From Betaproteobacteria bacterium (GTDB lineage Bacteria; Pseudomonadota; Gammaproteobacteria; Burkholderiales; SG8-39), in assembly GCA_016713125.1 (NCBI GenBank), contig JADJPT010000014.1, positions 5,083-69,082 on the forward strand: DNA of 64,000 bases, in the 5' to 3' direction. The first letter of the stretch is position 1. Every line of letters starts with the position of its first letter. This document shows positions 16,719 through 42,317 of this stretch, in pieces. Below the pieces are notes generated by a model that was given only the letters and a program-made list of their open reading frames with translations, was not told the origin of the DNA and did no database searches. A program made the translations under genes and the position numbers.

Positions 16719-16731
16719 GGTGTCGCTCCTC

Positions 16732-17412: not shown

Positions 17413-17420
17413 CTCGTTCC

Positions 17421-18942: not shown

Positions 18943-18944
18943 GG

Positions 18945-21900: not shown

Positions 21901-22697
21901 AAATGCGCGTCCGGGGTGCGCGTCTGCGGAACGTTCGACCCCCAGGCGATGATGAAGGTGGAGTTGTACCAGTCGGCGGACTCGGGCACGTCGGTCTGCT
22001 CTCCCCAGGTCTGCGGGCTGGACGGCGGCAGGTCGCAATACCAGTCGTAGAAGCTCATGCACACGCCGCCGATCAGGGAGAGGTAGCGGCTGCCCGCCGC
22101 ATACGAGACCATCGACATTGCGGGGATCGGCGAAAAGCCGATCACGCGGTCCGGTCCGTGCTTGCCGATCGTGTAGACGTTGGCCGCGGCGATGATCTCG
22201 TCGACCTCGTCCCAGCTCGAGCGCACGAAGCCGCCCATGCCGCGCACGGCCTTGTAACTCCTGGCGCGCCCGGCGTCCTCGACGATCGACGCCCAGGCAT
22301 CGACCGGCCCGAGGTTGCGGCGCGCCGCGCGCCACAGGCGGATCAGGCGTCCGCGCACCATCGGGTACTTGATGCGGTTGGCGCTGTACAGGTACCAGGA
22401 ATACGAGGCGCCGCGCGAGCAGCCGCGCGGCTCGTGGTCGGGCAGATCGGGGCGCGTGCGCGGATAGTCGGTCTGCTGGGTCTCCCAGGTGACCACCCCG
22501 CCCTTCACGTAGATCTTCCAACTGCACGAGCCCGTGCAGTTGGCGCCGTGCGTGGAGCGCACGATCTTGTCGTGCGCCCAGCGGTCGCGGTAGGCCTGTT
22601 CCCAGCTGCGGTCTTCGCCGGTGGTGACGCCGTGGCCGCCGGCGAAACTGGTGCGATCCTGCTTGAGGAACATCAGGCGGTCCAGAAAGTGGCTCAT
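18945..22697 (-). CDS. narG: respiratory nitrate reductase alpha subunit NarG
   Basis: ORF 18945..22697(-), 1250 aa, intact. The N-terminal STHGANCTGSCSW motif is present, and the sequence matches NarG along its full length. Confidence 0.98.
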   Translation of the reverse strand: MSHFLDRLMFLKQDRTSFAGGHGVTTGEDRSWEQAYRDRWAHDKIVRSTHGANCTGSCSWKIYVKGGVVTWETQQTDYPRTRPDLPDHEPRGCSRGASYSWYLYSANRIKYPMVRGRLIRLWRAARRNLGPVDAWASIVEDAGRARSYKAVRGMGGFVRSSWDEVDEIIAAANVYTIGKHGPDRVIGFSPIPAMSMVSYAAGSRYLSLIGGVCMSFYDWYCDLPPSSPQTWGEQTDVPESADWYNSTFIIAWGSNVPQTRTPDAHFFTEVRYKGAKTVAVTPDYAEVSKLADLWMHPKQGTDAALAMAMGHVIFKEFHLERQSAYFTDYVRRYSDMPMLVKLVKRGEAWVADRFLRASDLSGALAQQNNPEWKTVGVDEATGDVVAPNGSIGFRWGQSDGKWNLEQRDAASGAEVKLSLSLIERRDAVVPVAFPYFGGIVNEQFANNDQGADILLRNVPVRRLQLAAGETLVATVFDLTAANYGVDRGLGGGGVAASYDDDVPYTPKWQEKITGVKAADVIAVARQFADNADKTQGKSMVIIGAAMNHWYHSDMNYRGIINMLIMCGCVGKSGGGWAHYVGQEKLRPQTGWTALAFALDWHRPPRQMNSTSFFYAHTDQWRYEKLSVREILSPLADPKAFPGSLIDYNVRAERMGWLPSAPQLQTNPLRVCKEAALVGMDPKAYAVLGLKSGSLKMSCEDPDHPSNFPRNMFVWRSNLLGSSGKGHEYFLKHLLGTRHGVQGKDLGDFGGAKPEEVVWHEQAPEGKLDLLVTLDFRMSTTCLYSDIVLPTATWYEKNDLNTSDMHPFIHPLSAAVDPVWESKSDWEIYKGIARKFSEVCVGHLGVEKELVLTPTMHDTPSELAQPFEAHDWKRGECELVPGKTAPQITVIERDYPNTYKKFTALGPLMSKVGNGGKGIAWNTEHEVEKLRELNHPVIEEGITRGMPRIESDIDAAEVVLMLAPETNGEVAVKAWEALSKITGREHKHLALPKEEEKIRFRDIQAQPRKIISSPTWSGIESESVSYNAGWTNVHELIPWRTITGRQQFYQDHKWMLGFGENMCVYKPPVDLKTIHPVQGGKPNGNAEVVLNFITPHQKWGIHSTYTDNLLMLTLSRGGPIVWLSETDAQKVGIVDNDWIELYNVNGAITARAVVSQRVKEGMCMMYHAQEKIVNVPGSEITGGRGGIHNSVTRIVTKPTHMIGGYAQQSYGFNYYGTIGTNRDEFVVVRKMNKVDWLDGPEQLVTAAQGGL

Positions 22698-25552: not shown

Positions 25553-25724
25553 GACGGTTGGCAGTCCGTCCGAGCGTTTCTTCACGACCTGCCGTCACGG
25601 GCAGGGAGAGTCGCGCGAGCCCCACGCCCGCAATGCGGAAATCCAGAGGTATATCCGCAGCGCTTGCGATTTGCGTATATTCGACCATCGTCTGCCGGCG
25701 CAGCGCGCCCGCCCGGAGGTTGCC

Positions 25725-27649
25725 ATGCAGTACCCCACGCAGTTCTGGACCCAGTCGATCCTGGTTCGCATCGGCTTCGCGATGAGCCTGATCGCCATAC
25801 TGGCGCTGGCCTCCATCTCTCCAGTTCGACGGTGTTCACCGAACGCTCGGAAGGCAAGGCGGGCGCCATCAACCTGGCCGGGTCGCTGCGCATGCAGTCC
25901 TGGCAGCTTGCCTCCAGCGTGGCCAACGCACAGCTCACCGGGGACGAGCGCAGGAGAATCGTCGAACGCAACGTCGCCGAGTTCGAATCCCGCCTGTCCA
26001 ACCCCCTGCTGCTTGCCGGACTGCCGACCGAAGACGCCTCCGCGCTGCGCACAACCTATCGCGAAGTCAGCGCGCAGTGGCGGGACCTGATACGCCCGCG
26101 CGCCCTGCAGGCTGCCGAATCCCCGGCCGCGGCGAGCACCTCCGCCTTCCTGGCCGAAGTGGCGCCCTTCGTCTCCCGCGTCGACCACCTGGTCGGCCTG
26201 CTGGAGGAGGATCTCGAGGACCGCATACGCACGCTGCGCTTCTACCAGGGGGTGGCGCTGTTCCTGATCGTGTTCGTGATCTTCGCCACCATGTACCTGA
26301 TGCACACCCAGGTCGTGGCGCCGCTGGGTGATCTGCTGTCGTGCTCGCGCGCCGTGCGTCGCGGCGAGTTCGACGTGCGTGCCTCGGGCACCGGTGCGGA
26401 CGAACTCGGCCAGCTGGGCGAAGCCTTCAACTACATGGTCGAGGATCTGTCGCGCATGTACGCCAACCTGGAGGCACGTGTGGCCGAGAAGACCGAGGCC
26501 CTGGAGCAGACGAACCGGTCCCTGGAACTGCTCTACAACACCACGCGCACGCTGTCCGAACGAACCGTCACCAACGAAACCCTGACCTCGGTGCTGCGCG
26601 ACGTCGAACGCGTGATCGGCGTGCAGGCCGGCGTGATCTGCGCGCACGAGGCTGCGCAGGCCAGCGGCTTTCCGATTGCAGCCACGTTGCTCAACGATGA
26701 CGGGCGGCCTGCGCTGTGCCAGGAAACGCGTTGCGATACCTGCTTCGCGGCCGGCCATGTCCACGAGCACCATCTGCCTTCCGGCGGCCGCATGCTGTCG
26801 GTGCCACTGGTCGAAGCCGGCCACACCTACGGGGTGATGCCTCTTGCGTTGGCGCCCGGCGACCACCTCGAACCCTGGCAGATGAAACTCGCCGAAGCCG
26901 TAGGCAGCCACATCGGCGCCGCACTGGCGACCTCGCGCCGCGCCGAAGAACGCCATCGTCTGGCACTGCTCGAGGAACGATCGGTGATCGCACGCGAGCT
27001 GCACGACTCGCTTGCCCAGTCCCTGTCCTATCTGAAAATCCAGGTCACCCGTCTGCAGGCCATGCTGGGCCGCGATCCCGCCCGTCCGGAAGCCGACGCC
27101 GTCGTCGAGGAGCTGAAAGCCGGCCTGGCCAACGCCTACCGCCAGCTGCGCGAACTGCTCACCACCTTCCGACTGCGCATCGAGGGACGCGGCCTGGACA
27201 CCGCGCTGCAGGACACGGTGCAGGAGTTCGCACAGCGTTGCGGCGTGGCGATACGTCTGGACAATCGCCTGTCCGGCGTCGAACTGGCCGCCAACGAGGA
27301 GATCCACGTGCTGCAGGTGATCCGCGAGGCGCTGTCCAACGTGGAGCATCACGCCAAGGCGAGTCACGTCGACATCGCATTGTGGCTGGCGCCGGGCAAC
27401 CGCTTGCGCGTGCGCGTCGAGGACGATGGCAGTGGCATAGGCGAGGCGCTCTCTCCCACGCACCACTACGGGCTGACCATCATGCGCGACCGCGCCGCGA
27501 GCCTGCACGGCACGCTGAACGTCGCGCGCAGGGCCCAGGGCGGCACCTGCGTCGAACTCGAGTTCGCCCCGGCCACGCCGTTCGGCGAAGCCTCCGCCAC
27601 ACTGCAGGCCGGCACACGAGCACCGCGACTGCGACCAGCACGCTGCTGA
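25725..27649 (+). pseudogene. narX: nitrate/nitrite sensor histidine kinase NarX, frameshifted near 25818-25822
   Basis: The start MQYPTQFWTQSILVRIGFAMSLIAILALASIS (after GGAGG) is in ORF 25671..26090(+). The protein continues as SSTVFTERSEGKAGAINLAGSLRMQSW (P-box) in ORF 25664..27649(+). HAMP domain, H-box ELHDSLAQSLS and HATPase motifs are all present. Confidence 0.9.
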
Positions 27650-28275
27650 TCATCGACGACCATCCGCTGTTTCGGCGCGGCGTCACGCAGTTGCTGGAAC
27701 TGGATCCATCCCTCGCGCTGGTCGGCGAGGCCTCGTCGGGGGAGGACGGCGCCAGACTGGTCGCCGAGCGCGACCCGGACCTGGTGTTGCTCGATCTGAA
27801 CATGAAGGGCATGAGCGGCATCGATACGCTGAAACGCCTGCGTGCGGAAGGTTGCACGGCGCGCGTCGTCATGCTCACGGTGTCGGACAGCCCTGACGAT
27901 CTGGTGGCCGCCATACGGGCGGGAGCCGACGGCTACCTGCTCAAGGACATGGAGCCCGAGCAGTTGCTGGCGCGCATCCGGGAGGCGCTGTTCGGCCGCA
28001 TGGTGATCAGCGACAACCTGGCCGGTGTACTGGCTCAGGCATTGCGCAGCGAGGCGCAGGCCGCCAGCCGCGATGCCGGCGAGCTTACCGACAGGGAACG
28101 CGACATCCTCGCCTGCCTGGCCACCGGCATGAGCAACAAGCTGGTCGCACGCGAGCTCGACATCGCCGAGGGCACGGTCAAGGTGCACGTCAAACACCTG
28201 CTCCGGAAGATGAAGTTTCGCTCCCGTGTGGAAGCCGCCGTGTGGGCGGTGCAGCACGGCCTGAAACGCGATTGA
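27643..28275 (+). CDS. narL: nitrate/nitrite response regulator NarL (REC plus LuxR HTH); the start codon is unresolved
   Basis: This is the tail of ORF 26716..28275(+): STLLIIDDHPLFRRGVTQLLE...DLNMKGMSG...LTDRERDILACLATGMSNKLVARELDIAEGTVKVHVKHLLRKM. There is no in-frame ATG, GTG or TTG between about 27541 and the DD motif. The coordinate given is the first CTG. Confidence 0.85.
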   Translation: MLIIDDHPLFRRGVTQLLELDPSLALVGEASSGEDGARLVAERDPDLVLLDLNMKGMSGIDTLKRLRAEGCTARVVMLTVSDSPDDLVAAIRAGADGYLLKDMEPEQLLARIREALFGRMVISDNLAGVLAQALRSEAQAASRDAGELTDRERDILACLATGMSNKLVARELDIAEGTVKVHVKHLLRKMKFRSRVEAAVWAVQHGLKRD

Positions 28276-28330
28276 GCCGGTTGCGTTCCCGCCGGCCTGC
28301 CCCTAACCTAGGCTCGAAGGAGGGGGCGCA

Positions 28331-29743
28331 ATGGCGGAAACCATCCAGGTTCCGGCGTGGCTGTTCATCGTCGTGGCGGGTCTGGCGATCTGGGCGATCC
28401 TCGAGCATCTGATCCTGCCCGGACTGCGCTTCGTTGCCTCGTCCAGCGCCGAGAAGCTGGTCGAGGACGTTTCCGCCCGCCTGCACATCGCCATCCGCCC
28501 CTGGCAGCGCACGCGCCGGCGCGTGCTGATCGAACGCCTGCTGTACGACCACAAGCTGCAGGACGTGATCGCGGCGCACGCCAAGGCGAACAAGCTGCCG
28601 CGCGAGGTTTCCTCGGCCATCGTCGAGCGCTATGTGCGCGAGATCGTGCCGGCCTTCAATGCCTACCTGTACTTTCGAATCGGTTACTGGCTGAGCCGTC
28701 GCGTTGCGCAGACCCTGTATCGCGTTCGACTGGGCTACGTCGATGCGCAGGGTCTGGCGGCCATCGATCCGAATGCCACCGTGGTGTTCGTCATGAACCA
28801 TCGCTCCAACATGGACTACGTGCTGGCCGGATACCTGGCCGCTGACCAGGCCGCACTCTCCTACGCGGTCGGCGAATGGGCGCGCATCTGGCCGCTTTCG
28901 CACCTGATCCGCTCCATGGGCGCGTACTTCGTGCGACGCAACTCCAAGGACGAGCTGTATCGCAAGGTGCTCGAGCGCTACATCACCATGGCCACCGTGG
29001 CCGGCGTTCCGCAGGCGGTGTTCCCGGAAGGCGGACTGACGCGCGACGGCCGCATGCGCGAGCCACGCCTGGGCGTGCTCGACTACATGCTGCGCGGATT
29101 TCGCGCCGACGGCGAGCGCGACGTGGTGTTCATCCCGCTGGGCATCAACTACGATCGCGTGCTCGAGGATCGCACCCTGCTGCGCTCCGTCGACCCGCAG
29201 GCCGGGCGCGTGGGCCGTGCACGCGCGCTCGGCAATACCATCGCCTTCGTGGGCCGCAACCTGCGACTGATGCTGAAGAGCCGCTGGTACCGCTTCGGCT
29301 ACGCGTGCGTGAACTTCGGATCGCCGGTTTCCATGCGAGCCTACTGCCGCGAGCGCGGCTTCGACTTTCCGCGCCTGACGAACGAAGAGCGCCGCGCGCG
29401 CATGGCCGAGTTCGGCGCGCACCTGATGAACGCAGTGGGCGGCGTGGTGCCCGTCCTGCCGGTGCCGTTGATGGCTGCGGTGTTCGTGCGCAATCCCGGG
29501 CGCGCCCTGGCCGGCCTGGAGATCAAGGCCCAGGTCGAGCGTCTGCTGGCAAGGCTGGACGCCGGTGGCGCACACGTCTACGTGCCGCGCCGCGACCTCG
29601 ACTATGCGCTGGATGCCGGACTGCGCATGCTCACGCTGCGTCACCTGGTCGATGAGAATGACGGCCTGTACACGGCGCGCGCCGCCGAGACCGCGTTGCT
29701 TGCCTATTACGCAAATTCGATCGAACACCTGCTGCGGGACTGA
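28331..29743 (+). CDS. PlsB-like glycerol-3-phosphate / lysophospholipid acyltransferase
   Basis: ORF 28331..29743(+), 470 aa. It has an N-terminal TM segment and the acyltransferase HX4D motif NHRSNMD, followed by FPEGGLTRDG. Confidence 0.75.
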   Translation: MAETIQVPAWLFIVVAGLAIWAILEHLILPGLRFVASSSAEKLVEDVSARLHIAIRPWQRTRRRVLIERLLYDHKLQDVIAAHAKANKLPREVSSAIVERYVREIVPAFNAYLYFRIGYWLSRRVAQTLYRVRLGYVDAQGLAAIDPNATVVFVMNHRSNMDYVLAGYLAADQAALSYAVGEWARIWPLSHLIRSMGAYFVRRNSKDELYRKVLERYITMATVAGVPQAVFPEGGLTRDGRMREPRLGVLDYMLRGFRADGERDVVFIPLGINYDRVLEDRTLLRSVDPQAGRVGRARALGNTIAFVGRNLRLMLKSRWYRFGYACVNFGSPVSMRAYCRERGFDFPRLTNEERRARMAEFGAHLMNAVGGVVPVLPVPLMAAVFVRNPGRALAGLEIKAQVERLLARLDAGGAHVYVPRRDLDYALDAGLRMLTLRHLVDENDGLYTARAAETALLAYYANSIEHLLRD

Positions 29744-29809
29744 GCGACCCGGGCAACCGAGCGTCGTGGTGCATTGCTAGAATCCCGGCTTACCGCAATC
29801 TCCAGACCC

Positions 29810-31102
29810 ATGCCTCCAGTGCATCCCCCTTCCCCGCCCGATCCGGCCGGTCGCAATATCGCCCCCCGAGTCGCTGCGGACGCCGGCGATCCGCCATTGG
29901 TGCGCGCCTTCGCCCGTCAGGTGGCGGTCATCACCCTGCCGGCGTGGCTGATGCTCGCCACCATTGCCGCGCTGGTCGCCGGGGCGATCACCTGGAGCTT
30001 CGCCGGCACCCTGCCGACGAAGATCGCCGGCAACTGCATACTGATGGACACCGGCGGCGTGGCGGAAATCGCCTCGCCGGGTACCGGTCGCCTGAACGAC
30101 ATCCTGGTGCAGCCCGGCGACCTGGTGCGTGCCGGACAGACGATCGGCAGCGTCGCTCAACCCGATCTTGATGAGCGCATCCGGCGCGCCCGCGCGCGCC
30201 TCGGCGAACTCGAGGCACGCGCGGGCGAGATCGCCACCCTGTCCAAGCGCGGGCTGGCGCTCAACGACGACGTGCTCGCGCAGCGCCGCGACTTCCTGAC
30301 CCGCCAGTTCGAACTCGCCCGCGCCCGCGTGCGCATCGCCGAAGAGCACGACGCCACGCAGAAGCAATTGCTGACACAGGGTCTGGTGACGCACCGCAGT
30401 GTCGAAGACGCCGGGCGCGAGGTGCGCGCCGCGATCCTCGCGGCCTCCGATCTGGAGCGGCAGATCGCCGAATTGCCGCGCGGACGCACCGACGTCCTCA
30501 AGCGGGAGGCGGACGAGCGTGCCGGGGTGCAACTGGAGTTCACCGAAGCGCGCCGCGAACTCGCCTTCCTTGAGGGGGAGCGTGAGCGAGGGACCTCCAT
30601 CATCAGCCCCTACGAAGGCAAGGTCATCGAGGTGAAGGCCGGCCGCGGCATGCTGGTGCAAAAGGATGCGCCGGTGCTGGCTTTGGAACGCTCGGCTGGC
30701 GCCGCCGCTTCCAGACTGGAGGCGGTGATGTACGTCGCCTCCAGCGAGGGGAAGAAGATACTGCCGGGCGCCGAGGTGCATCTGTCGCCCGCCACCGTGA
30801 GGCGCGAGGAACACGGCCACGTGATCGGCCGCGTACGCTTCGTTTCGGACTACCCATCGACCCCGCAGTCTCTGCTCGCCACCCTGGGCAACGAGGAACT
30901 GGCCCGCGACCTGGCCGGCGTCGCTGCACCGTTCGAACTGCGTATAGAGATGCCGACCGATGCGAGCGGCGGCCACCGCTGGTCGCGCGGCGGAAACCCT
31001 CCCGCGCTGCGCGCGGGCACGCTGTGCGCCGGCCAGGTCATGATCAGGCGCGAGCGGCCGATCGGCTTCGTGATCCCCGCCCTGCGGCACGAATCGCGCT
31101 GA
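29810..31102 (+). CDS. HlyD-family membrane fusion protein, NHLP/NHLM-bacteriocin-system type (paralog 1)
   Basis: ORF 29774..31102(+) has a TTG at 29774 and its first ATG at 29810. It has one TM segment, long coiled-coil segments and the C-terminal block ISPYEGKVIEVKAGRG...EVHLSPATVRREEHGHVIGRV...LRAGTLCAGQVMIRRERPIGFVIPALR. That block is clearly paralogous to the 37244..38521 product. Confidence 0.8.
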   Translation: MPPVHPPSPPDPAGRNIAPRVAADAGDPPLVRAFARQVAVITLPAWLMLATIAALVAGAITWSFAGTLPTKIAGNCILMDTGGVAEIASPGTGRLNDILVQPGDLVRAGQTIGSVAQPDLDERIRRARARLGELEARAGEIATLSKRGLALNDDVLAQRRDFLTRQFELARARVRIAEEHDATQKQLLTQGLVTHRSVEDAGREVRAAILAASDLERQIAELPRGRTDVLKREADERAGVQLEFTEARRELAFLEGERERGTSIISPYEGKVIEVKAGRGMLVQKDAPVLALERSAGAAASRLEAVMYVASSEGKKILPGAEVHLSPATVRREEHGHVIGRVRFVSDYPSTPQSLLATLGNEELARDLAGVAAPFELRIEMPTDASGGHRWSRGGNPPALRAGTLCAGQVMIRRERPIGFVIPALRHESR

Positions 31103-31120
31103 GCCGCTCCTGAAACAAGA

Positions 31121-31150
31121 AAGCCGGGCGATCTTTCGATCGTCCGGCTT
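31121..31150 (-). terminator. stem-loop, likely intrinsic terminator of the cargo gene
   Basis: The sequence aagccgggcgatc-tttc-gatcgtccggctt forms a 13-bp stem with 1 mismatch. On the minus strand it is followed by the T-rich tract tcttgtttc. It lies between the convergent hlyD paralog 1 and the cargo gene. Confidence 0.5.
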
Positions 31151-31159
31151 TCGAACTGC

Positions 31160-31179
31160 ATCCCGTCCGCAGACGGGAT
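31160..31179. other. perfect 8-bp stem / 4-nt loop hairpin just 3' of the cargo-gene stop
   Basis: atcccgtc-cgca-gacgggat. It starts 8 nt beyond the TGA at 31187-31189 (minus strand). There is no T-run on either side. Confidence 0.35.
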
Positions 31180-31186
31180 CTTCAGA

Positions 31187-31940
31187 TCAGGGTCGGCCGC
31201 CCTTCGGCCCGGACTTCAGCTTGTCCTTCAGCTTGTCCTTAAGGCCGCCCTGCTTGCCGCCTTTGTCCTTGCCGCCCTTCTTATCCTTGCCGCCCTTGTC
31301 CTTGCCACCCTTCTTGTCCTTACCGCCCTTGTCCTTGCCACCCTTCTTGTCCTTGCCGCCCTTGTCCTTGCCGCCCTTCTTGTCCTTGCCGCCCTTGTCC
31401 TTGCCGCCCTTCTTGTCCTTCCCGCCCTTCTTGTCTTTCCCGCCCTTCTTGTCCTTATGCTTGTCCTTGTACTTCTTCAGCTTCTCCTTCTGCTTCTTCT
31501 TGTCCTTGTTGTCCTTCTGCTTCTTCTTGTCCTTATCCTTCTGCTTCTTCTTGTCCTTGCCGTCCTTATGTTTCTTCTTGTCCTTTTCCTTCTGCTGCTT
31601 GAGCTTGTCCTTCAGCTTCTTGTCCTTATCTTTATGCTTCTGCTTATCCTTATGCTTCTTGTCCTTCTCTTTCTGCTTCTTGTCCTTGTCCTTCTGCTGC
31701 TTGAGCTTATCCTTCAGCTTCTTGTCCTTCTCCTTCTGCTTGTCCTTGGACTTTGTCCTTCGACTTGTCCTTGGACTTGTCCTTCGACTTGTCCTTGGAG
31801 GCGCCGTCCTTGTCGCCCCCCATCATGAAGATCTTCGGCTTGTCGCCGGCTGCACCGCCGGAAACCTGCTCGAGTTCGGCATCGTCCAGCTCGCCCGACT
31901 GCCGCCCCTGATTGCTCCTGCTGCCCGGATCTTTGGCCAT
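31187..31940 (-). CDS. double-glycine-leader exported protein with a Lys/Asp/Gly-rich repeat core (putative cargo of the adjacent C39-ABC exporter); reading frame interrupted by one extra base at about 31752-31754
   Basis: Met43 of ORF 31707..32066(-) gives MAKDPGSRSNQGRQSGELDDAELEQVSGG|AAGDKPKIFMMGGDKDGASKDKSKDKSKDKSKDK. That frame then stops at 31707. The +1 frame stays open, with no stop and no Met, down to TGA 31187-31189 and encodes SKDKQKEKDKKLKDKLKQQ...(KDKKGG/KDKGG)x12...KQGGLKDKLKDKLKSGPKGGRP. The total of 754 nt equals 251 codons plus 1 nt. A GGGGGA motif lies 8 nt upstream of the ATG. The codon choice is host-like (AAG, GAC, GGC). Confidence 0.6.
31256..31456 (-). repeat. in-frame tandem repeat: 12 units of 18 nt (KDKKGG) or 15 nt (KDKGG); the last 165 nt form 5 copies of a 33-nt period
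   Basis: Read directly as aaggacaagaagggcggc / aaggacaagggcggc units. Unit lengths are all multiples of 3. The differences between units that I can see are third-position synonymous changes (AAA/AAG, GAT/GAC, GGC/GGT/GGG). Confidence 0.9.
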
Positions 31941-32066
31941 TTTTGTATCCCCCGAAAGTGAACGCACCGGCCCCGAGCCGGCAACTTGTAAATCATAGAA
32001 CGAAACTGCCGTCCGCAACGTGACAAAACGCACAACCTCCCTGATGCAAGGAGGGACTGCCAGCAC

Positions 32067-35015
32067 TCATTCGTCCAGGCTCTGGCGTTGCGCCAGATCG
32101 GCGAACAGACCCTTTTCCCTGATCAGTTCCGCATAAGTTCCGCACTGCACTACGCGACCTTCCTCCAGAACCACGATCTGGTCGGCCTGGGCGATGGTGC
32201 TCAGGCGATGGGCAATGACGATGCGCGTGGCCTTCATGCGCAGCAGGCTATCCGACACCAGTGCCTGGCTCCTGTTATCCAGCGCGCTGGTCGCCTCGTC
32301 GAGGAACAGCACCCTCGGCCGACCGACCAGTGCACGCGCGATCAGGATGCGCTGGCGCTGCCCGCCGGACAGGGTGCTGGTGCCTTCGCCGATCGCCGTA
32401 TGCATGCCCATGGGCATAGCCTGTATGTCTTCTTCAAGGCCCGCCAGGCGCGCCGCCTCCCAGGCGTCGTCTATGGTCCCGCCCGACACGCCGACGATGT
32501 TCGAGAAGATGTCGCCGGCCATCAGCGGACTGCCCTGCAGCACCACGCCGAACTGCCGGCGCAGGGCCCGCTGGTCAATATCCTGCAGATTCTTGTCGTC
32601 GTACAGGATGGCGCCGCTGCCCGGCGCGTCGAACCCCAGCAGCAGACGCAACAAGGTCGACTTGCCGGAACCGGAGGGTCCGACGATGGCCGTAAAGCTG
32701 CCGGCCGGAACGGAAAAGCTCACATCGTCCAGCACCTCGTCCCCGTCCGGGTAGGTGAAGCCGACCTGGCTGACCTCGATCGCCCCGGCAATGCGCCCAG
32801 GCGCAGTCTTGCCTTCCGCGGTCTCCGGCAGGGCCTGCAGCAAAGGCGCCGCCATCTTGAACAGCGGAGTGACGATCAGCAGTCCGACCGCCGTTTCGCA
32901 GATGCCCATTACTCCGATCAACAATGCCGTGAATGCGGCGAAGAAGCCGACGAACTCGCCTGCGCTCATGCCGCTGCCGCCCGGTCGCGCCAGCAGCGCC
33001 GCCATGGTCACGAACACGACCAGCATGGCCAACTGGTGATAACCGGCGAAGAACACCTGCTGCTGAGCCTGCAACTTGAGGATCAGGAAGCGCACCGCGC
33101 GAAAGCGGGCGAACTCCTCCGCCCACAGCCCGAAGGCGCGTGCCTCCGAGGCCGTGGTGCGCAGCTTTGCCACCCCCTGCACCAGCTGGAATACCAGCGC
33201 CATCACGCGTCGCTGCGAGGGGATCAGCGCATCCAGGCGCTTCAGCGTCACTTTGAAGGCCACATACAGCGCCACGGCCGCACCGACCACCAGCGCGAGC
33301 ACCAACAGCGCCAGCGGCGCGCTGAAACGGAACAGCACGACCAGATTCAACAGGGCGAAGCTGCCGCCCAACAGCCCGGTCAGGGTGCCCACGGATAGCA
33401 TGCGGTTGACCACGTTAACGGCGTTGACGCGCATCGCCAGATCGCCGACCGCATAATCGCGGAAGAAATCGATGGGCAGGGCGAGCACCCGATCCCAGAC
33501 CGCAGCCTGAATGCTCTGCTCCATGCCGTCCTGCACGCGCAGCAGGAACAGGCCGCGCGCCAGCGAAAACAACGAATGCACCAGCGCGGCCGCCAGCAGC
33601 ACCAACCCCAGTTGCATCAGCACCGAAGTCTGCGCCGACGGAATCACCTGATCGACCAGTTCGGCCGTGACGATGGGCACCAGCAGGCCCAATAGCGCAA
33701 TCAGGGCGGCGAACGCGACGATCGGTCCGAGCTCGCGCCCCTGGCCGCGCAGACCGTGGCGCACCAGGTCAAGCACGCCTATGGGCTGGTGCGGAAAAGG
33801 CCGGTAGAACGTGTAGGCGTAGGGCTTCAAGCCGGCCGCCAGTGCCGCATCCACGCGCGATTCGGCCCCGGTCACCGGATCGTGCGCCACGTAGCGCCCG
33901 CCGCGCTCGGGCAGCAGCGCAAGAGGCCCGTCATCCTCCGCGCGAAACGCCAGCAAGGGACCGGCATCACGCTTCCACCACTCGCCGGAGAGCGTCACCG
34001 CGCGGCTGCGCACACCCGAGGCATCGGCCAGGGCGCTGACGTAGGCCGCCGGCTCGGCAGGTGCCTCGCCCAGTTCCCGGAACTCGATGCCGGCCCGCTC
34101 ACCGACGCGGCGCGCGGCCGCGTGGATGGCACCGGTTCCGGGCAATTCGCGCTCGGGCGCCGTGGCATCCGGATCCAGCAGCTTCTGCATCTGCAGCAGG
34201 CCCGCATCCAGACCACGTTCTATGCCGTGCACCCGGGCTCGCAGCCGTGCGGATCCGGCCTGCTCGTCGGCGTCCAGGGCCGCGCTGCCGGCGCGCAGCA
34301 TGAGCCGCAGCGAGACGCAATAGGCGGCGAATCCCGCCGCCAGGTTCTCGCAATCAGACAGCGCCTGCACCTCGATCTCGGCATCCTCCACGACACGGCA
34401 CCAGCCGTGGCGCGACACGAATGCCAACTCGCCCGACTCCAGAACCGCGGCCTCGCGCCCCTGGTACGCCAGCCTCCCGGCCTTCAGACGGATCGCAACC
34501 ATGCCATAGTCGCAGGCGCAGGCCGCGCCCTGCGTCGCCAGGAGCGTTTCCTCGGGTTCCAGCGCGAGTGGATCCTGCCCCGGACCGGGCACGGCCGGCG
34601 CCTCGGCCGCCCATTCCCAAAGCGCGTCGGTCAGTTCGTCGCTCACATCTTCCGCATCCTCGTCCTGGTGCGCCTCGAGCCAGTCCTTGCGCGAGCAGGC
34701 AGACCAGAGCGCACCCGGCCCGGGCACGGCCAGAAAACGCTCCACGCCTGCGGGCGGTGTCACGCCCCCGGGCAGCGGCTGTTCCGGGCCCGCGCGCAGC
34801 AGGTGATGCAGGGCGCCGGGAGCGCCGAATTCTCCCGAAGCGACCGCGAACACGTCGATGAAGCCCTCCTCGGCTTCGATCACCTGGTCGGCATCGTCCA
34901 GCGCTATCGCGTTGCGCGTCAGCCGCTGGAGCTCCTGCGGCCCGGCACCGTCGACCTGCGCAGCCTCGCGCTTGCGCGAAGGGTTGCGCGCGATCTTCCT
35001 GCGCGGGCGGATCAT
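32067..35015 (-). CDS. NHLP-type bacteriocin export ABC transporter permease/ATPase, second subunit (no peptidase; long N-terminal, probably cNMP-binding-like, extension)
   Basis: Within ORF 32067..35609(-). The start MIRPRRKIARN at 35015 overlaps the upstream stop (ATGA). It is 982 aa, with a 6-TM ABC exporter domain, Walker A GPSGSGKST, signature LSGGQRQR and Walker B LFLDEATSALD. Confidence 0.85.
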   Translation of the reverse strand: MIRPRRKIARNPSRKREAAQVDGAGPQELQRLTRNAIALDDADQVIEAEEGFIDVFAVASGEFGAPGALHHLLRAGPEQPLPGGVTPPAGVERFLAVPGPGALWSACSRKDWLEAHQDEDAEDVSDELTDALWEWAAEAPAVPGPGQDPLALEPEETLLATQGAACACDYGMVAIRLKAGRLAYQGREAAVLESGELAFVSRHGWCRVVEDAEIEVQALSDCENLAAGFAAYCVSLRLMLRAGSAALDADEQAGSARLRARVHGIERGLDAGLLQMQKLLDPDATAPERELPGTGAIHAAARRVGERAGIEFRELGEAPAEPAAYVSALADASGVRSRAVTLSGEWWKRDAGPLLAFRAEDDGPLALLPERGGRYVAHDPVTGAESRVDAALAAGLKPYAYTFYRPFPHQPIGVLDLVRHGLRGQGRELGPIVAFAALIALLGLLVPIVTAELVDQVIPSAQTSVLMQLGLVLLAAALVHSLFSLARGLFLLRVQDGMEQSIQAAVWDRVLALPIDFFRDYAVGDLAMRVNAVNVVNRMLSVGTLTGLLGGSFALLNLVVLFRFSAPLALLVLALVVGAAVALYVAFKVTLKRLDALIPSQRRVMALVFQLVQGVAKLRTTASEARAFGLWAEEFARFRAVRFLILKLQAQQQVFFAGYHQLAMLVVFVTMAALLARPGGSGMSAGEFVGFFAAFTALLIGVMGICETAVGLLIVTPLFKMAAPLLQALPETAEGKTAPGRIAGAIEVSQVGFTYPDGDEVLDDVSFSVPAGSFTAIVGPSGSGKSTLLRLLLGFDAPGSGAILYDDKNLQDIDQRALRRQFGVVLQGSPLMAGDIFSNIVGVSGGTIDDAWEAARLAGLEEDIQAMPMGMHTAIGEGTSTLSGGQRQRILIARALVGRPRVLFLDEATSALDNRSQALVSDSLLRMKATRIVIAHRLSTIAQADQIVVLEEGRVVQCGTYAELIREKGLFADLAQRQSLDE

Positions 35016-37236
35016 GCCTCCTCCAGCAGCTTGCGGTAATGGCCGCCTTTGATCGCCATCAAAGCATCGTGGCTGCCTTCCTCGACCAGGCTGCCTTCCT
35101 CGAGAACCAGGATGCGATCGCAATCGCGCACCGTGCTCAGGCGGTGGGCAATCACGATGCAGGTGCAGCCTCGCCGCCGCAGGTTGCGCTCGAGCTCGGC
35201 CTCGCTGGTCGTGTCCAGCGCGCTGGTCGCTTCGTCGAGGACCAGCACGCGTGGCTTGCCGACCAGCGCGCGCGCGATCTCCAGGCGCTGGCGCTGCCCG
35301 CCGCTCATGTTGCGGCCGCCTTCGCTGACCGAACCGTCGTAGCCCTGCGGACGGCTCATGATGAAATCGTGGATCAGCGCATCCTTGGCCGCGGCAATCA
35401 GGTCGCTCTCGGGAACCGTCGGATCCCAGAGCGTGAGATTTTCCCTGAACGTGCCCTGGAACAGCATGATGTCCTGATCCACCAGCGCCAGCGAGCCGGC
35501 CAGCCTCAGTCGGCTGTAGGCTTCGCGCGGCCGCTCGTCGAACAGGATCTCGCCAGAAAGCGGTGCATACAGGCCGGCCACCAGTTTTGCCACGGTCGAC
35601 TTGCCGCAACCCGAGCGGCCGACCAGCGCAATGCGCTCGCCCGGGGTCGCCACGACGGAGAACTCGCGCAGCAGCGGCTCGTCATTGGGGTTGTAGCCAA
35701 GTTCACGCCGCGCAACTCGATCTTCCCCGACAGCTTGGTCGGCTTTCCATCCACATCGTCCGCGACATGCAGCGGCACACCGCTGGCCAGCGGATCGCGA
35801 TCGTAGTTCAGCACGTCGTCGATGCGCTGCATGTCGCCGCGCAGGTGCTGTACTCGATCCATCAGGCCGACCAGGCCGACCGCCGGCGCCACGAACCCGT
35901 AGACCAGCCCCTGGAAGGCCACCAGCATGCCTATGGTCATGTGACCGTCGATCACTCGCAGCCCGCCCACACACAGGATCAGCGCCTCGTTGGCGAGCAA
36001 CAGGAATGCCGGCACCTGCCGGAAGTACAGCCCCAGGGTCTCCATGCGCTGATGCGCTTCGACGTACTGCGCGAGAAAGCCGGCGAACTTGGCGAAGAAC
36101 CCCGACTCCGAGGCGGTGGCGCGCAGGGTCTCGATCACCGACAGCCCGCTGGCCGCCGTGCCCTGCAGCTTGCCCTGCGCGATCGACAGCGCGAGGCTGG
36201 TTTCCTGGGTGCGCTGCGTGACCAGCTGAAACACGGCAACGTTGGCGATCACCACCGCCAGGCTGAGGAACGAAAGCAGCACGTCGTAGCTCAACATGAC
36301 GGCAAAGAAGAACAACGCCAGCATGCCGTTGACTACCGCGCGGGCCAGATCGCCGGTGATCACGCCGGCCACGTTGTCGTTGAGCATCAGGCGCCAACCG
36401 ATCTCGCCCGGTGCGCGTTGCGTGAAGAATGCATGCGGCAACTGCAGCAGGTGCCAGAAGAATCGGCTGGCCATGGCCAGCACGAGCTTGGTCTGCAGCC
36501 GCAACAGATACCAGCTCTGCAGCCATTTCAGCAGCACCTGCAGGGCTGCGGCCAGCGCCAGGCCGGCCAGCAGCGGCACCACCCAGGAATTCTGGCCGTC
36601 CACCAGGACGCGGTCGATGAACACCGAGGTCAGCACCGGGATCACCAGTCCCGGCACCACCATGAACAGGCCGGCCAGCATCAGGAAAGCGATCGCGGGT
36701 CGGTCGCCGCTCAGTCGCTTGAAGGCATTGCGGTAGATGTTCTCCGACTCCCCGCCCGGCTGGAAATCCGGTCCCGGTTCCATCGCCAGCACCACGCCGG
36801 TGAACGACTGCTCGAATTCGGCATTGGAGACCTGGCGACGCCCCCAGGCCGGATCGTTGATGTAGACCCGGTCGCCGTCGAAGCCTTCCAGCACCACGAA
36901 GTGGTTGAAGTTCCAGAATACGATGCACGGCAGCTTGAACTCGCGCAGGTCGGCCGGCTCCTTCTTGTACCCCTTGGCGAGCATGCCGTAGCCGCGCGCG
37001 GCCTTGAGCACGTTGCTGGCCTTGCTGCCGTCGCGCGTCACGCCGCAGCGCTGGCGCAGTTCCTCCAGCGACACGCGACGTCCGTAATGTCGCAGCACGA
37101 TGGAAAGCGCGGCAGCGCCGCACTCCAGCGCCTCCAGTTGCAGAACGACGGGCGTGCGCACCGGCCGCCTTCCGCCCGCCTTGCCGCGCAGCCGCGACCA
37201 AAACGCGCGCAGACGAGCTGCAAATGCGCTCAGCAT
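35012..37236 (-). pseudogene. NHLP-type bacteriocin export ABC transporter with N-terminal C39 peptidase domain, frameshifted near 35700
   Basis: ORF 35506..37236(-) carries the C39 domain and TMD up to KLSGKIELRGVN. The C39 residues are Cys in LEALECGAAALSIVL, His in NFNHFVVLEG and Asp in YINDPAW. The NBD, GYNPNDEPLLREFSVVATPGERIALVGRSGCGKST...LSGGQRQR...LVLDEATSALD, is in ORF 35012..37201(-). The junction gtgaacttggctac would be in frame as gtg aac ttt ggc tac. Confidence 0.9.
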
Positions 37237-37243
37237 GCGCGCC

Positions 37244-38521
37244 TCACGACAGCCCGAACCAGCGCCGCAGCGCGGGCAACAGAAGGGCCAGGGGACGGCG
37301 TTCGGCGACGGTGATCTCGGCCCTGCACAGGGATCCGCTGCGCACCGCCGGTGGACGCTGCGTCGACGCGGACCAGACGAACCCGCCGTCCGGCCGGCGG
37401 TCGAAGCTGGCGCGCGCGAAGATCGCCGCGCGCTGCCCGGAAAGTTCCTTCAGAAGATTGTCGTTCTGCACCAGCAGGCGCATGCCCGACAGGCTGGCGG
37501 GGTACTCCGAGACCTGTTCGACGCGGGCACGCATGAAGCCGTGTTCCTGGCGCTTCACGTGATCCGGAACGATCTCGACCGCCATCCCCGAGACCAGCAA
37601 CTTGCCCTCGCCGCTGGAAATGTAGATCGCGGCCTCCAGCGACGCAGCGCTGGCACCCGCCTCGGAACTGCGTTCGATCTGCAGCAGGGTGCCGCCATAG
37701 GCCACGTTGGAGCCGTTCTGCGCCTTCACCTCGATCACGCGGCCGGCGTACGGGCTCACCACCGGCGCGGTCTGGCGCTCGATGTCGCGCAGCGCCTCGA
37801 GGCTGCGCCGCGTCTCGTTGACCTGGAACTGCAGCGAAACCTGTTCGCGATTGCGCTGTCGGGCTTCTTCCGCGTTCTGCAGATGGAGCTGCTTGGCGCG
37901 ATCGCGCAAGCGCTCGCGCTCGAGCACCGCACCCGACAAGGCTTCCTCCGTGTCGAGCAGCGCCTGCCGCGTGATCAGTCCTTGCGAGAGCAGGCCACGC
38001 TCGGACCCCAGCCGACGCTCGAAGGCCGCCGCGCGCTCGCCGGCCAGTCTGGCCTGCGCCTCGAGTCCGGCACGCTCGGCCGCGAGTGCGCCCTGGCCCT
38101 GCTCCCCTGACAGGCGAGCCAGGCGTCCCGCCTCGGCCAGGCGCCGTTCCAGCTCCGTAAGGCGTTCCGCCGCCTGCTCGATCTGCTGATAGAGCTCCGG
38201 TCGCAGTACGCGCGCCACTTCCTGGCCCACGCTTACGCGGTCGCCCACCTTCAACCCCAGGCTGGCGACCTGCCCGGCCGCTCCGGCCGCGATCTCCGCG
38301 ACGCCGCCGGGACTGGTGATCACGCAGCGGCCCGCCACCTTCTGCGCCACGCGACCCTGCAGACCCCAGTACAGGGTCGCCGCGGCCACGACCACGCATC
38401 CCGCCCACACCAACGGCCATTGTGGACGGTTCAGGCCCAGCAGCGCATCCAGGCGATCCGGCGAGGACAGCCGTTCGAGGGCGACCTTGCGGAACAACCC
38501 CTCGTTGGGCGGGAGACTCAT
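37244..38521 (-). CDS. HlyD-family membrane fusion protein, NHLP/NHLM-bacteriocin-system type (paralog 2)
   Basis: ORF 37244..38521(-), 425 aa. The N-terminus LFRKVALERLSSPDRLD is followed by a TM segment, coiled coils, and VSPYAGRVIEVKAQNG...VEIVPDHVKRQEHGFMRARV...VRSGSLCRAEITVAERRPLALLLPALR. Confidence 0.85.
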   Translation of the reverse strand: MSLPPNEGLFRKVALERLSSPDRLDALLGLNRPQWPLVWAGCVVVAAATLYWGLQGRVAQKVAGRCVITSPGGVAEIAAGAAGQVASLGLKVGDRVSVGQEVARVLRPELYQQIEQAAERLTELERRLAEAGRLARLSGEQGQGALAAERAGLEAQARLAGERAAAFERRLGSERGLLSQGLITRQALLDTEEALSGAVLERERLRDRAKQLHLQNAEEARQRNREQVSLQFQVNETRRSLEALRDIERQTAPVVSPYAGRVIEVKAQNGSNVAYGGTLLQIERSSEAGASAASLEAAIYISSGEGKLLVSGMAVEIVPDHVKRQEHGFMRARVEQVSEYPASLSGMRLLVQNDNLLKELSGQRAAIFARASFDRRPDGGFVWSASTQRPPAVRSGSLCRAEITVAERRPLALLLPALRRWFGLS

Positions 38522-40179
38522 CGCGGCAAGCCCTGCAGGCGCTGCAAGTCCACGTCGTAACCCCCGGGCGCCGGCAGCACCAGCAGGCCGCTGTCGAACA
38601 GCACCTGCGCAATCAGGGAGGCATACTCCTGGCGCAACTGCAGCAGCGAGAGCTGCGCTCCATCCAGCCGGTCGCGCACGTTCAGAACGTCGATCAGCGT
38701 GGCCAGGCCCAGTCTGCGCTTGGTCAGTTCGTTGCGCACCGAGATCTCGTAGCGCTCGGCAGCCGCCACCGTCTCCCGGTAGCGCGCCGCCGTGCGGCGT
38801 ATCGACGAGGCCGTGGCCGACAGCGCCGGCCCGATCGAACGCTCGAGCTCGCGCACGCGTATGGTGGCCTGGTCGTGCGCGGCGGTACGCGCCAGCAGTT
38901 GCCCGCGCGCGACGTTGTTCTCGATGGGCAGGCGGAACTCCAGCGCCACGTTGAGCGAAGGTTCGGGCCGACCGTTGTTCAGCGCCGGCGCCACCGCCAG
39001 CGAGGAACTTCCCTCGGCCAGGCCGTTGGTCGTGACCCCGGTGATCAGGTCGATCTGCGGACGCAGGTTGTTGTGGGCAGCCACCAGCAATGCCTGTGCG
39101 GAGCGTTCGCGCAGGCGCGCCGAACGCAGGTCGGCCCGCCGCTCCAAAACACCGTCCAGCTGTCCTTCGGCCGCGGCCGCGGCGTCTATCATCGCCGCAT
39201 CGATCGCCGGCAGCGGATCGGCCGCCACGGCGGCGGCGAACACGTCGCGGGCGTCCGCGTTCAGCAGCCGTCCCAGCGTGGTCCAGGCCTGCTGCAGCAA
39301 CTGCTCCTCCGCCACGCGTGCGGCGCGCTTCTCCGATTCGCTGGCCAGCGCGAGGTTGAGTTCGGCCGATGGCACCTGGTCGGCGGCGATCAGTTTGCGC
39401 AGTTCCGCAACCAGTTCCCCGGCGCCCTGCTCGCTGAGCTTGAGAATCTCCAGCCGCTGCACACGCGCGGCAATCTCCCAGTACGACTGGGCAACGGCCA
39501 GGACCACGTTGGCGCTGGCCTGCACGAGATCCTCGCGGGTCGCCTGGAACTCGAACTCGCTGGCACGCAGGGTCGCCGACTGCTGCACGCCGCCGAAATT
39601 GCGCGCCAGCGGGATGCGCAGCCCGAAGCGCAGGCTGCCGGCGGTGGTTCGCGGATTGTTCTGCAGGGCGTTGAGGTTGCTGGTCAGCGCGCTCACGCTC
39701 AGGCCCAGCTCGACTCGCACACCCGATTCGAGCGTGCGCTCCACTCCGGCACGGTATGCCGTATTGCGGTTCACCTCGGTACGCAGTCCCGGATCCGGCG
39801 TCGTCGCCAGCCCGGCGCGCTCACTGCTGTTGAGCGGCCGCTGCGTCAACTCCCGCTCGGAGCGCAACACGAGATCCGTGTCGTAGGCGCCGCGCGCTTC
39901 GAGCACTCCGCCCTGTCCGGCTCGCAGTTGCTGGGCCTGAATCTGTATGTCGGCGTTCTGCGCCAGCGCCCTGCGCACCGCCTCGGACAAGGCCACTCGG
40001 CCACCAAGCAGAGCCCTGGCCGCAGGGGCACCGCGATCGAGCGGCGGAGGCAAAGCGTCGCCATAGCCTCGGTCGGGCTCCTGGGCGCCGGACCGCGCGG
40101 CGCCGGTCAGGGTCAGGGCCAGCAGCAGGAATGTGCCCGCGAGTCTCACGGCCTGAAGCTTCCCCGGGTCACGCGGCAC
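38518..40179 (-). CDS. TolC-family outer membrane efflux protein
   Basis: ORF 38518..40179(-), 553 aa. It has a signal-like N-terminus LAGTFLLLALTLTGAARSGAQE and two TolC-type repeats (LSEAVRRALAQNADIQIQ..., LERRADLRSARLRERSAQ...). The stop overlaps the hlyD start (ATGA). Confidence 0.8.
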   Translation of the reverse strand: MPRDPGKLQAVRLAGTFLLLALTLTGAARSGAQEPDRGYGDALPPPLDRGAPAARALLGGRVALSEAVRRALAQNADIQIQAQQLRAGQGGVLEARGAYDTDLVLRSERELTQRPLNSSERAGLATTPDPGLRTEVNRNTAYRAGVERTLESGVRVELGLSVSALTSNLNALQNNPRTTAGSLRFGLRIPLARNFGGVQQSATLRASEFEFQATREDLVQASANVVLAVAQSYWEIAARVQRLEILKLSEQGAGELVAELRKLIAADQVPSAELNLALASESEKRAARVAEEQLLQQAWTTLGRLLNADARDVFAAAVAADPLPAIDAAMIDAAAAAEGQLDGVLERRADLRSARLRERSAQALLVAAHNNLRPQIDLITGVTTNGLAEGSSSLAVAPALNNGRPEPSLNVALEFRLPIENNVARGQLLARTAAHDQATIRVRELERSIGPALSATASSIRRTAARYRETVAAAERYEISVRNELTKRRLGLATLIDVLNVRDRLDGAQLSLLQLRQEYASLIAQVLFDSGLLVLPAPGGYDVDLQRLQGLPR

Positions 40180-40191
40180 GGCCTGCGACCC

Positions 40192-40740
40192 CTACTGGGC
40201 CAGCGTTTTCAGCAGTCGTTCGAAGCGCAGGCCGGCGTTGTAGACGCCATCCAGCACCTCGTCATCCAACTCGTCTTCCAGGCCTTCGGTATCCGCCGAC
40301 GCGGCGCCGGCGGCATCCTGGGGCTTGCCGTAGCCCAACGTCGTCATGGTGGAACTCATGCGATCGGCCAGGAATATCGCAAGCGCACGATAAAAGCGCG
40401 CCGCAAACCCATGGTTGCGTTTCAGCTGTTCGCGCAAGGCGCGCTGCGGCACGGCGAGCACCGTACAGGCCTCCTCGACGACCACCGAGGCGGTCGGCGG
40501 CCGCGAGGCGACAAGGGAGATCTCGCCGAGGATCTCGCCCACGCCGACCTTGGCCAGCTTGAAGCCGCTGGGCAGCACGACGGACAGGCTGCCGTCCGTC
40601 ACGATGTACAGGAAATCGTTCTTCTCGCCGCTGCGAATCAGCACTACGCCGGGCGCATGCTTCTCGCGCTTGCCGGTCCGCGCGAGCCACTCCACATCTG
40701 CGTCGTCCAGCTGTCCGAGGATGTACAGGACCTTGCGCAT
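40192..40740 (-). CDS. cyclic nucleotide-binding (CAP effector) domain protein
   Basis: ORF 40192..40740(-), 182 aa. The sequence GVVLIRSGEKNDFLYIVTDGSLSV...VGVGEILGEISLVASRPPTASVVVEEACTVLAV fits the cNMP-binding beta-roll / phosphate-binding cassette pattern. No DNA-binding domain follows. Confidence 0.8.
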   Translation of the reverse strand: MRKVLYILGQLDDADVEWLARTGKREKHAPGVVLIRSGEKNDFLYIVTDGSLSVVLPSGFKLAKVGVGEILGEISLVASRPPTASVVVEEACTVLAVPQRALREQLKRNHGFAARFYRALAIFLADRMSSTMTTLGYGKPQDAAGAASADTEGLEDELDDEVLDGVYNAGLRFERLLKTLAQ

Positions 40741-40749
40741 GGGCGAACC

Positions 40750-42282: not shown

Positions 42283-42317
42283 GGTCTACTCCCCGGGTTC
42301 GGCAGAGGTTCGGCGGT

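Follow-up and report, generated by a model that had tools for sequence, protein, structure and literature searches.

Does a long reading frame without a single start codon belong to a real gene? The question is raised by positions 31187-31940, read on the minus strand, of a 64,000-nt stretch of DNA from Betaproteobacteria bacterium (GenBank assembly GCA_016713125.1, contig JADJPT010000014.1), which we call the window. An earlier, sequence-only reading of the window had proposed that a gene lies hidden here behind a frame break, and that it joins a double-glycine (GG) leader, of the kind used by ATP-binding cassette (ABC) exporters with a C39 peptidase, to a long body of Lys, Asp and Gly. That proposal is now supported by an intact copy of the gene in a close relative (L014) and by counterparts in six further lineages. 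We consider it probable that 31187-31940 is one gene for a secreted precursor, with a promoter-like region, a ribosome-binding site and a terminator of its own. The family to which this gene belongs is apparently a conserved, undescribed cargo class of a known secretion system.

The list of open reading frames (ORFs) for the window holds, as had been reported, only a 119-residue minus-strand ORF (31707..32066) in this region. An internal ATG at 31940 opens the 29-codon leader MAKDPGSRSNQGRQSGELDDAELEQVSGG (31854..31940, on the minus strand, as are all features of the gene), with predicted cleavage after Gly29. The leader carries V at -4, L at -7, E at -8 and L at -12 in addition to GG at -2/-1, the arrangement in which the double-glycine consensus had been recognised. 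The Shine-Dalgarno-like GGGGGA said to precede the ATG is present at 31948..31953, 7 nt 5' of the start, and GGAGG or GGGGAGGG stands at the equivalent place in the orthologues described below. Codons 1-33 of the mature protein (31755..31853) stay in the ATG frame and encode AAGDKPKIFMMGGDKDGAS, an N-terminal motif that aligns with GGxxPKNxxDGFxGG of the orthologues, followed by KDKS repeats. The frame breaks at 31751..31754, where an extra A in the run 31752-31754 changes AAG-TCC to AAA-GTC-C, and the frame from the ATG ends in SKDKSKDKSKDKSKDKVQGQAEGEGQEAEG at a stop at 31707-31709. One base over, the Met-free frame that had been postulated was found to run through 187 codons (31190..31750) to a TGA at 31187..31189. 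It reads nearly only K, D, G, Q and L, and consists of a K/D/Q/L/H segment, about 13 GGKDK(K) units and the tail LKDKLKDKLKSGPKGGRP.

The joined product has 250 residues, a 29-residue leader and a 221-residue core. The core contains 102 Lys, 39 Asp, 34 Gly, 4 Glu, 1 Arg and 4 His, and neither Cys nor Trp; an earlier hand count had arrived at the same numbers of Lys, Asp, Glu and Arg and the same lack of Cys and Trp, with one His too many (5). Its net charge is +60, its isoelectric point (pI) 10.1 and its mass 24.9 kDa. The gap to the gene for the second ABC subunit upstream (ABC2; stop at 32067-32069) measures 126 nt, the spacing given before, and holds a putative promoter (31992..32034) that, to judge from the sequence, would consist of the CRP/FNR-type palindrome TGTGCGTTTTGTCACG (32019-32034) and a -10-like TATGAT (31992-31997). 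The palindrome lies about 30 nt before the hexamer, with its centre near -41.5 of the inferred start, and a consensus promoter scan found no full sigma-70 match upstream of the cargo gene. A block TGTGA(C/A)A...TTTGT, followed by TAGAAT, TATCAT or TAGCAT, is kept upstream of the cargo gene in six orthologous loci (L015, L018, L020, L023, L024 and L089). On the 3' side of the stop, two terminator hairpins (31113..31178) are predicted from fold energy, with UUUCUUGUUU after the second. This region folds at -43.2 kcal/mol (z = -6.0; none of 200 shuffles folds as well) and ends in a U-rich tail.

The gene exists in unbroken form elsewhere. The window copy of ABC2 is 100% identical, over a C-terminal query of 686 residues, to protein P0002, which lies on L014, an ENA metagenome scaffold of 62.8 kb (ERZ28654165 scaffold_607). 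Over window positions 26066-41014 (14.9 kb) this scaffold and the window are 99.45% identical and differ by 80 substitutions and 2 indels. Because 59 of the 80 substitutions fall at third codon positions (17 at first and 5 at second, the last tally including one indel), the two can be regarded as natural relatives under purifying selection. On L014 the cargo gene is an uninterrupted ORF of 250 codons that had already been called; its product matches the joined sequence at every residue, and the Met-free frame of the window corresponds to residues 64-250. The first indel is the extra A of the cargo gene (gacAAAgtcc in the window, gacAAGtcc in L014), placed by the alignment at 31754. The second is a C missing from the window at 35699-35701 (aactt[c]ggctac) within the gene for the peptidase-containing ABC subunit (ABC1), whose L014 copy is intact (741 residues). 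The cargo gene is thus hidden in the window only, by a single-base insertion, and the claim that it escapes ORF callers which require a start codon holds for the window but not for L014, where it is an ordinary called gene. Exact look-ups of the truncated 77-residue product and of NarI, seeking more of the sister contig, returned no match.

Orthologues were surveyed in the regions downstream of ABC2 orthologues with at least 60% identity. Cargo genes are present in seven independent betaproteobacterial lineages, shortly 3' of the gene for the second ABC subunit of an NHLP-type system, at a distance of 114-192 nt in L015, L018, L020, L023, L024/L027 and L089. Besides the window and L014, the lineages are a Betaproteobacteria metagenome-assembled genome (MAG; L015; 398 residues, leader ...ELKDEDLAKVSGG, K/D/A/Q repeats, 126 nt after ABC2), a Sulfuritalea MAG (L018/L019; K/D/N repeats within which the contigs end), a Rhodocyclales MAG (L020-L022, with L020 from assembly GCA_016235165.1; K/D/S/N repeats), a 402-kb JGI contig (L023; K/D/S/L repeats), a set of ENA contigs (L024-L027; K/D/H/V repeats, 164 or 140 residues beside an identical ABC2, N gaps in the repeat of two scaffolds) and a further JGI contig (L089; 188 residues, K/D/L/H/A repeats).

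The members of this family agree at both ends and in composition. Their leaders, of 26-40 residues, share the core E-L-x-D-x-(D/E)-L-x-x-V-x-G-G with seven invariant positions: E17, L18, D20, L23, V26, G28 and G29 do not vary across six orthologues. A motif of the type G-G-x-x-P-K-N-x-x-D-G-F-x-G-G is common to the mature N-termini of the orthologues, and the C-terminus is (G/T)RP in four lineages (window/L014, L023, L024/L027 and L089). The cores, 138-358 residues long, contain 31-46% K and 14-17% D, with a net charge of +35 to +73 and a pI of about 10.1. Most orthologues have Lys at every second residue and about one Asp per 2.5 Lys. The alternation is near-perfect in L020, L024 and L089, where K-K pairs are 2.0-2.4 times as frequent as expected at even lags and almost absent (ratio about 0) at odd ones, and it is weaker in the window and L015. 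The K/D frame, whose loss in other genomes had been named as an outcome that would count against the gene, is kept in the orthologues.

The lineages agree in charge density, K:D ratio and K-x alternation, whereas filler residues and repeat number are free to change. Repeat number varies even between near-identical strains: L024 and L027 have identical ABC2 proteins and cargos that differ by 24 residues, or four DKHKVK units. Short-read contigs end in the cargo repeat (L018, L019, L021 and L022) or carry N gaps there (L025 and L026), which together with the L024/L027 difference marks the repeat as length-polymorphic and hard to assemble. The genes flanking the loci vary by lineage and include PlsB-like, FAD-binding, short-chain dehydrogenase with AMP-binding, GGDEF and RelA genes.

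The genes upstream of the cargo gene in the window encode an export system, all on the minus strand. ABC2 (32067..35015) is an NHLP export permease/ATPase of 982 residues without a peptidase domain and scores 819 bits on TIGR03797 (cut-off 709). Its N-terminal extension of about 295 residues (34130-35015) has no Pfam match, and the TIGR03797 model begins after it. ABC1 (35012..37236) combines C39 peptidase, permease and ATPase. In the window it is split by the 1-nt deletion at 35699-35701, with the peptidase and membrane domains in one frame and the ATPase domain in another; the intact L014 protein scores 993 bits on TIGR03796 (cut-off 853). The peptidase domain matches Pfam Peptidase_C39 (2e-37) and LahT150 (6mpz, E = 4e-46), and keeps the QxxxxxC, NHFVVL and INDP motifs that carry the catalytic Cys, His and Asp. 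These genes are followed by one for an HlyD-type membrane fusion protein (37244..38521; 252 bits on TIGR03794 for the L014 orthologue against a cut-off of 156, with weak Pfam HlyD matches) and one for a TolC-like outer-membrane factor (38518..40179; Pfam OEP 4e-20, with a weak TIGR01844 match). The C39-ABC, second ABC, HlyD and TolC genes had been correctly identified as an operon beside the cargo gene, with the qualification that the C39-ABC gene is itself frameshifted in the window. A second HlyD-type gene, additional to that operon, lies just downstream of the cargo gene and convergent with it (29774..31102, plus strand; 284.5 bits on TIGR03794, cut-off 156), and occupies the same position in L020, L023, L024, L089 and L090. 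The three NHLP-type export models TIGR03794, TIGR03796 and TIGR03797 all exceed their curated cut-offs in this one locus, TIGR03796 by way of L014.

The locus that bears the CRP/FNR-type palindrome also encodes a cyclic nucleotide (cNMP)-binding protein of the 'bacteriocin-type transport-associated' kind (40192..40740, minus strand). This protein matches only the C-terminal half of TIGR03896, at 130 bits and under the cut-off of 161; Pfam cNMP_binding is recorded for the L014 gene. A DUF1501/DUF1800 gene pair at 41119-43766 (minus strand) adjoins the export locus.

The leader of the cargo fits such a transporter. Its end, ELDDADLEKVAGG, is shared with NHLP leaders, and the last 14 or so residues read (G/S)ELDDADLEKVAGG. 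Most of the proteins picked up by a profile built from the cargo N-termini have a PF02979 or PF07862 domain. The seven of these precursors that were inspected all have leaders ending in (G)ELxDxDLE(K/Q)V(A/S)GG, for instance ...GELDDADLEKVAGG in P0126, P0141 and P0151.

Alternative accounts of the region differ over the strand that codes, the nature of the product and the meaning of the break. A plus-strand ORF (31221..31961; 246 residues, rich in Leu, Ser, Pro and Phe) runs uninterrupted across the region in the window, and were it the real gene, the minus frame would be its antisense shadow. Antisense frames are indeed open in all orthologues, as other frames on both strands largely or wholly are in every orthologue's repeat, but they are so because the sense strand is purine-rich and T-poor and its complement pyrimidine-rich. 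The K/D frame has a codon adaptation index of 0.80 and the leader part one of 0.68, compared with 0.61-0.77 for eight reference genes, 0.31 for the plus-strand ORF and 0.11-0.33 for the other frames; the sequence-only reading had singled out this ORF as a possible refutation, and it did not prove to be one. Most of its Leu residues would be encoded by TTG, which accounts for 44 of the 573 Leu codons in the reference genes, and it starts at TTG with no ribosome-binding site seen just upstream. A change at a third codon position of the K/D frame is silent there and, by codon phase, in the plus-strand L/S frame as well. The tandem-repeat periods in the cargo gene are all multiples of 3. The non-repetitive conserved features (leader, N-terminal motif, C-terminal GRP, ribosome-binding site and terminator) all read on the minus strand, and the gene calls recorded in L014, L015, L020, L023, L024, L027 and L089 are all on the ABC strand. 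Of all the alternatives, a plus-strand gene strikes us as the least credible. Another account keeps the gene and makes its product the precursor of a ribosomally synthesised and post-translationally modified peptide (RiPP), with Lys and Asp side chains cross-linked or modified before export in a graspetide- or NHLP-like manner. The transporter family was defined, according to its founding paper, around NHLP and Nif11 RiPP precursors (PMC2887384), the cargo leader ends as NHLP leaders end, and the leader region gives a weak match to the ATP-grasp-target model TIGR04497 (E = 0.014). That match spans the GG motif only, however, and neither an NHase-like nor a Nif11 leader domain (TIGR03793 and TIGR03798) was matched at E up to 10 by four cargo proteins and two leader fragments. 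No ATP-grasp, LanM, YcaO or radical-SAM gene is found among the genes flanking any locus, and these differ between lineages. We hold such modification to be quite improbable.

The break itself most likely stems from an error in assembly or sequencing, the other option being an inactivation peculiar to this strain. The 64-kb window contains at least six gene-disrupting lesions. In addition to those in the cargo gene and ABC1, an extra G at about 18735-18737 splits narH (minus strand) at GGWVRK / GNGRIEPRQ, the frame of a RisS/EnvZ-like sensor kinase (plus strand) changes at 47341-47359 after HisKA and leaves the HATPase part in another frame, and a second, HlyB-like ABC exporter (52553-54659, minus strand; ABC_membrane and ABC_tran) has both a frameshift at about 53744 and an in-frame TGA at 53066-53068 within its ATPase domain. 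The split narH lies in an otherwise normal narGHJI cluster (16023-22697) that adjoins narXL (25664-28275). If the frameshift were real, the export system and its cargo would be decaying pseudogenes, the cargo cut to its leader plus 48 residues and ABC1 deprived of its ATPase domain. Both indels in the 15 kb shared with L014 fall in the export system, as decay would have it, and the cargo repeats of L020 (8045-8990) and L023 (8045-8960) also carry single-base deletions (GAC-AC-AAG and AAG-AC, respectively) while all neighbouring genes are intact. The export system, however, covers about 11 of those 15 kb, so that two indels there are unsurprising, and the four or more further lesions sit in unrelated genes, the conserved narH among them, which fits a technical rate of about 1 per 10 kb better than targeted decay. 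All three lesions with an identified inserted or deleted base (cargo, ABC1 and narH) lie in short homopolymer runs, the K/D frame beyond the break shows no further damage, and the excess of third-position substitutions speaks for purifying selection. Decay is on this evidence unlikely, although it is the strongest of the alternatives. A programmed ribosomal frameshift, or a phase-variation switch controlling the long polycation, is more doubtful even than side-chain modification. It would draw on the unexplained recurrence of single-base indels early or midway in the repeat in three of the seven lineages, beyond which the K/D frame is open to the normal, conserved C-terminus, and on the window site A-AAG, which would let tRNA-Lys re-pair in the +1 frame. 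The idea is largely refuted by four lineages, including the 99.45%-identical strain, that are plainly in frame. Moreover, the break sites differ and would have to be bridged in opposite directions (+1 in the window, -1 in L020 and L023), no long homopolymer tract, conserved slippery heptamer or stimulatory structure occurs at the breaks, and the open frame beyond them is a by-product of composition. The break is probably an ordinary technical lesion, and not a biological device.

Several observations nevertheless weigh against a gene for a secreted precursor. An open frame alone is no better than chance, and thus uninformative, in a purine-rich repeat; with open frames dropped as evidence, the gene call rests on the leader, codon usage, synteny and the conserved ends. 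The leader scores just under the cut-offs of the curated GG-leader models (TIGR01847, 14.3 against 15.7 bits; TIGR03949, 17.4 against 21.5 bits; match of 13-15 residues). No conserved immunity gene or modification enzyme was found near the cargo gene at the loci, and none of them has a small conserved gene alongside the cargo, so that neither a bacteriocin nor a RiPP role is positively supported. An adjacent cargo of this kind was absent from the ABC2 lineages L016/L017 and L090-L092, from the Massilia isolate L028 and from 60 more distant metagenome loci. The repeat indels in L020 and L023, with their intact neighbours, may reflect real recurrent inactivation rather than error. Finally, outward transport of a cargo charged +60 works against the membrane potential and is, by our own reasoning, energetically unusual.

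Leader cleavage, export and a function outside the cell are steps suggested by the gene context, and the secreted precursor might be handled as follows. Its leader ends in the recognition motif ELDDA-LE-V-GG, as NHLP leaders do, and the C39 cysteine-peptidase domain of ABC1 would bind this leader and cut after Gly29. The unfolded 221-residue product would next pass both membranes by way of the ABC1/ABC2 pair, the HlyD-type adaptors and the TolC-like channel. Plausibly, it is the interspersed Asp residues that allow the precursor to be translated and prevent harm inside the cell. The structure predicted for the mature product is that of a charged, rod-like helix with a flexible tail of GGKDK units. 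AlphaFold2, run without an alignment and therefore weak evidence, models a long helix over residues 2-97 of the post-shift part (the K/D/Q/L/H segment; predicted local distance difference test score about 85-97), disordered GGKDK units and a short C-terminal helix.

Since charge density, K:D ratio and K-x alternation are conserved while filler and repeat number vary, our best guess is that the cargo acts outside the cell by bulk electrostatics, binding anionic polymers or surfaces such as lipopolysaccharide, exopolysaccharide, extracellular DNA or polyphosphate. Antagonism against competitors and conditioning of a matrix or surface are about equally open as roles and are not separable here. 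In favour of antagonism are the kind of transporter and the cationic nature of the cargo; a matrix role is suggested by the absence of an immunity gene and by the GGDEF neighbour in L024/L027, which is also present in the cargo-less Massilia L028.

How does this cargo compare with those already known? The only cargos described in the founding paper on the export system are of the NHLP, Burkholderia-type NHLP and Nif11 kinds, and the systems it covers resemble ours in the combination of C39-ABC, second ABC and HlyD-type adaptor, in the leader end and in having the cargo gene adjoin the transporter genes (PMC2887384). The cargo described here differs in its leader, which has 26-40 residues and lacks an NHase-like or Nif11 domain, and in its Lys/Asp-repeat core of 138-358 residues in place of a short core rich in Cys, Ser or Thr; modification enzymes are absent from its vicinity. 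Microcin cores are smaller than about 10 kDa and of ordinary composition, and an immunity gene is present. By contrast, the core here is of 24.9 kDa, low-complexity and charged +60, and no locus has a candidate immunity gene. Class II microcins and colicin V, exported via CvaAB-TolC, share with it a Gram-negative double-glycine leader, a peptidase-containing ABC protein, a membrane fusion protein and TolC (PMC12219008, PMC10233263). Relative to CvaAB-TolC, the exporter here has two ABC subunits and two HlyD paralogues. The epsilon-poly-L-lysine of Streptomyces is likewise a secreted polycation made up mostly of lysine, with an activity set by charge and length, not by sequence. It is non-ribosomal, with 25-35 residues, isopeptide links and no acidic residues, whereas the present cargo is ribosomal, alpha-linked, far longer and one-sixth Asp. 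For exported Plasmodium proteins, rapidly expanding Lys-rich tandem repeats are reported that are sufficient for localisation to the erythrocyte periphery (PMC5207086); these are eukaryotic, unrelated in sequence and exported by another route, and serve as an analogy only. The N-terminal domain of ABC1 resembles the peptidase domains of LahT150 and PCAT1 (PDB 6mpz and 4ry2), with the catalytic motifs kept, a comparison that covers the processing enzyme only; LahT150 is described as a double-glycine-motif protease (PMC6363468). In the literature searched, no substrate had the composition or size of this cargo.

Searches for related proteins returned little, and the reasons bear on how such results are read. 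Neither Pfam nor NCBIfam holds a model for the cargo core. The literature on double-glycine cargos, peptidase-containing ABC transporters, microcins and lysine-rich secreted proteins yielded no description of Lys/Asp-repeat GG-leader proteins, although its coverage was incomplete and a description elsewhere is possible; the sequence-only reading, too, had known of no such polycation among GG-leader cargos. A protein search with the full joined product was swamped by unrelated low-complexity proteins, and its only match, a KDKGGKDK stretch in P0001, is a chance one. The N-terminal profile search gave only NHLP- and Nif11-type precursors, and not even the query's own protein. In an exact look-up against a collection of 15 billion proteins, none of six cargo proteins (L014, L015, L020, L023, L024 and L027) was present, though the genes are called on the contigs. 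This absence may be due to low-complexity filtering, and because of it a finding of 'no homologues' from protein searches carries no meaning.

Searches at the DNA level were also made. The pattern K-D-K-K-G-G-K-D-K occurred at 13 loci in 185,579 species genomes, in each case by coincidence within an unrelated linker or repeat, and a GG leader was present at none of them. A metagenome scan with ABC2 gave 60 distant loci (25-70% identity over the best segment, at most 47% over long matches), none with a Lys-rich open frame, and a tblastn search of plasmids with ABC2 yielded nothing but relatives of 35-41% identity. A Cardiobacteriales MAG (L003, about 1600-2400) contains an unrelated 813-residue open frame with about 50 tandem KDGKDK/KGGKDK units. 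Its N-terminal part presumably is BatB- or TPR-like, and as it has no GG leader it represents a separate K/D repeat expansion.

Far more tentatively than for the gene itself, we propose that these proteins may form a previously unrecognised class of type I secretion cargo, namely ribosomally made polyelectrolytes of polylysine-like character, 140-400 residues long and unmodified, in which every second residue is K and the K:D ratio is about 2.5. Once secreted by Rhodocyclales-like betaproteobacteria, they would need nothing but their charge to act on anionic polymers or surfaces, and hypervariable repeats, perhaps with frame-breaking indels, would tune or switch their production within populations.

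Families of this kind are easily overlooked, because they are absent from the protein collection, invisible to searches and broken up where short-read contigs end in the repeats. NHLP-type ABC export systems are annotated and regarded as bacteriocin or RiPP pumps. A conserved, unmodified polycation of 25-40 kDa as a dedicated cargo would widen the known export range of these systems in size, charge and lack of modification, and would allow the handling of a disordered, strongly cationic substrate by a peptidase-containing ABC transporter to be tested in a natural setting. A polylysine-like polymer that is genetically encoded and can be secreted could, in addition, be of use as an antimicrobial, a flocculant or a coating.

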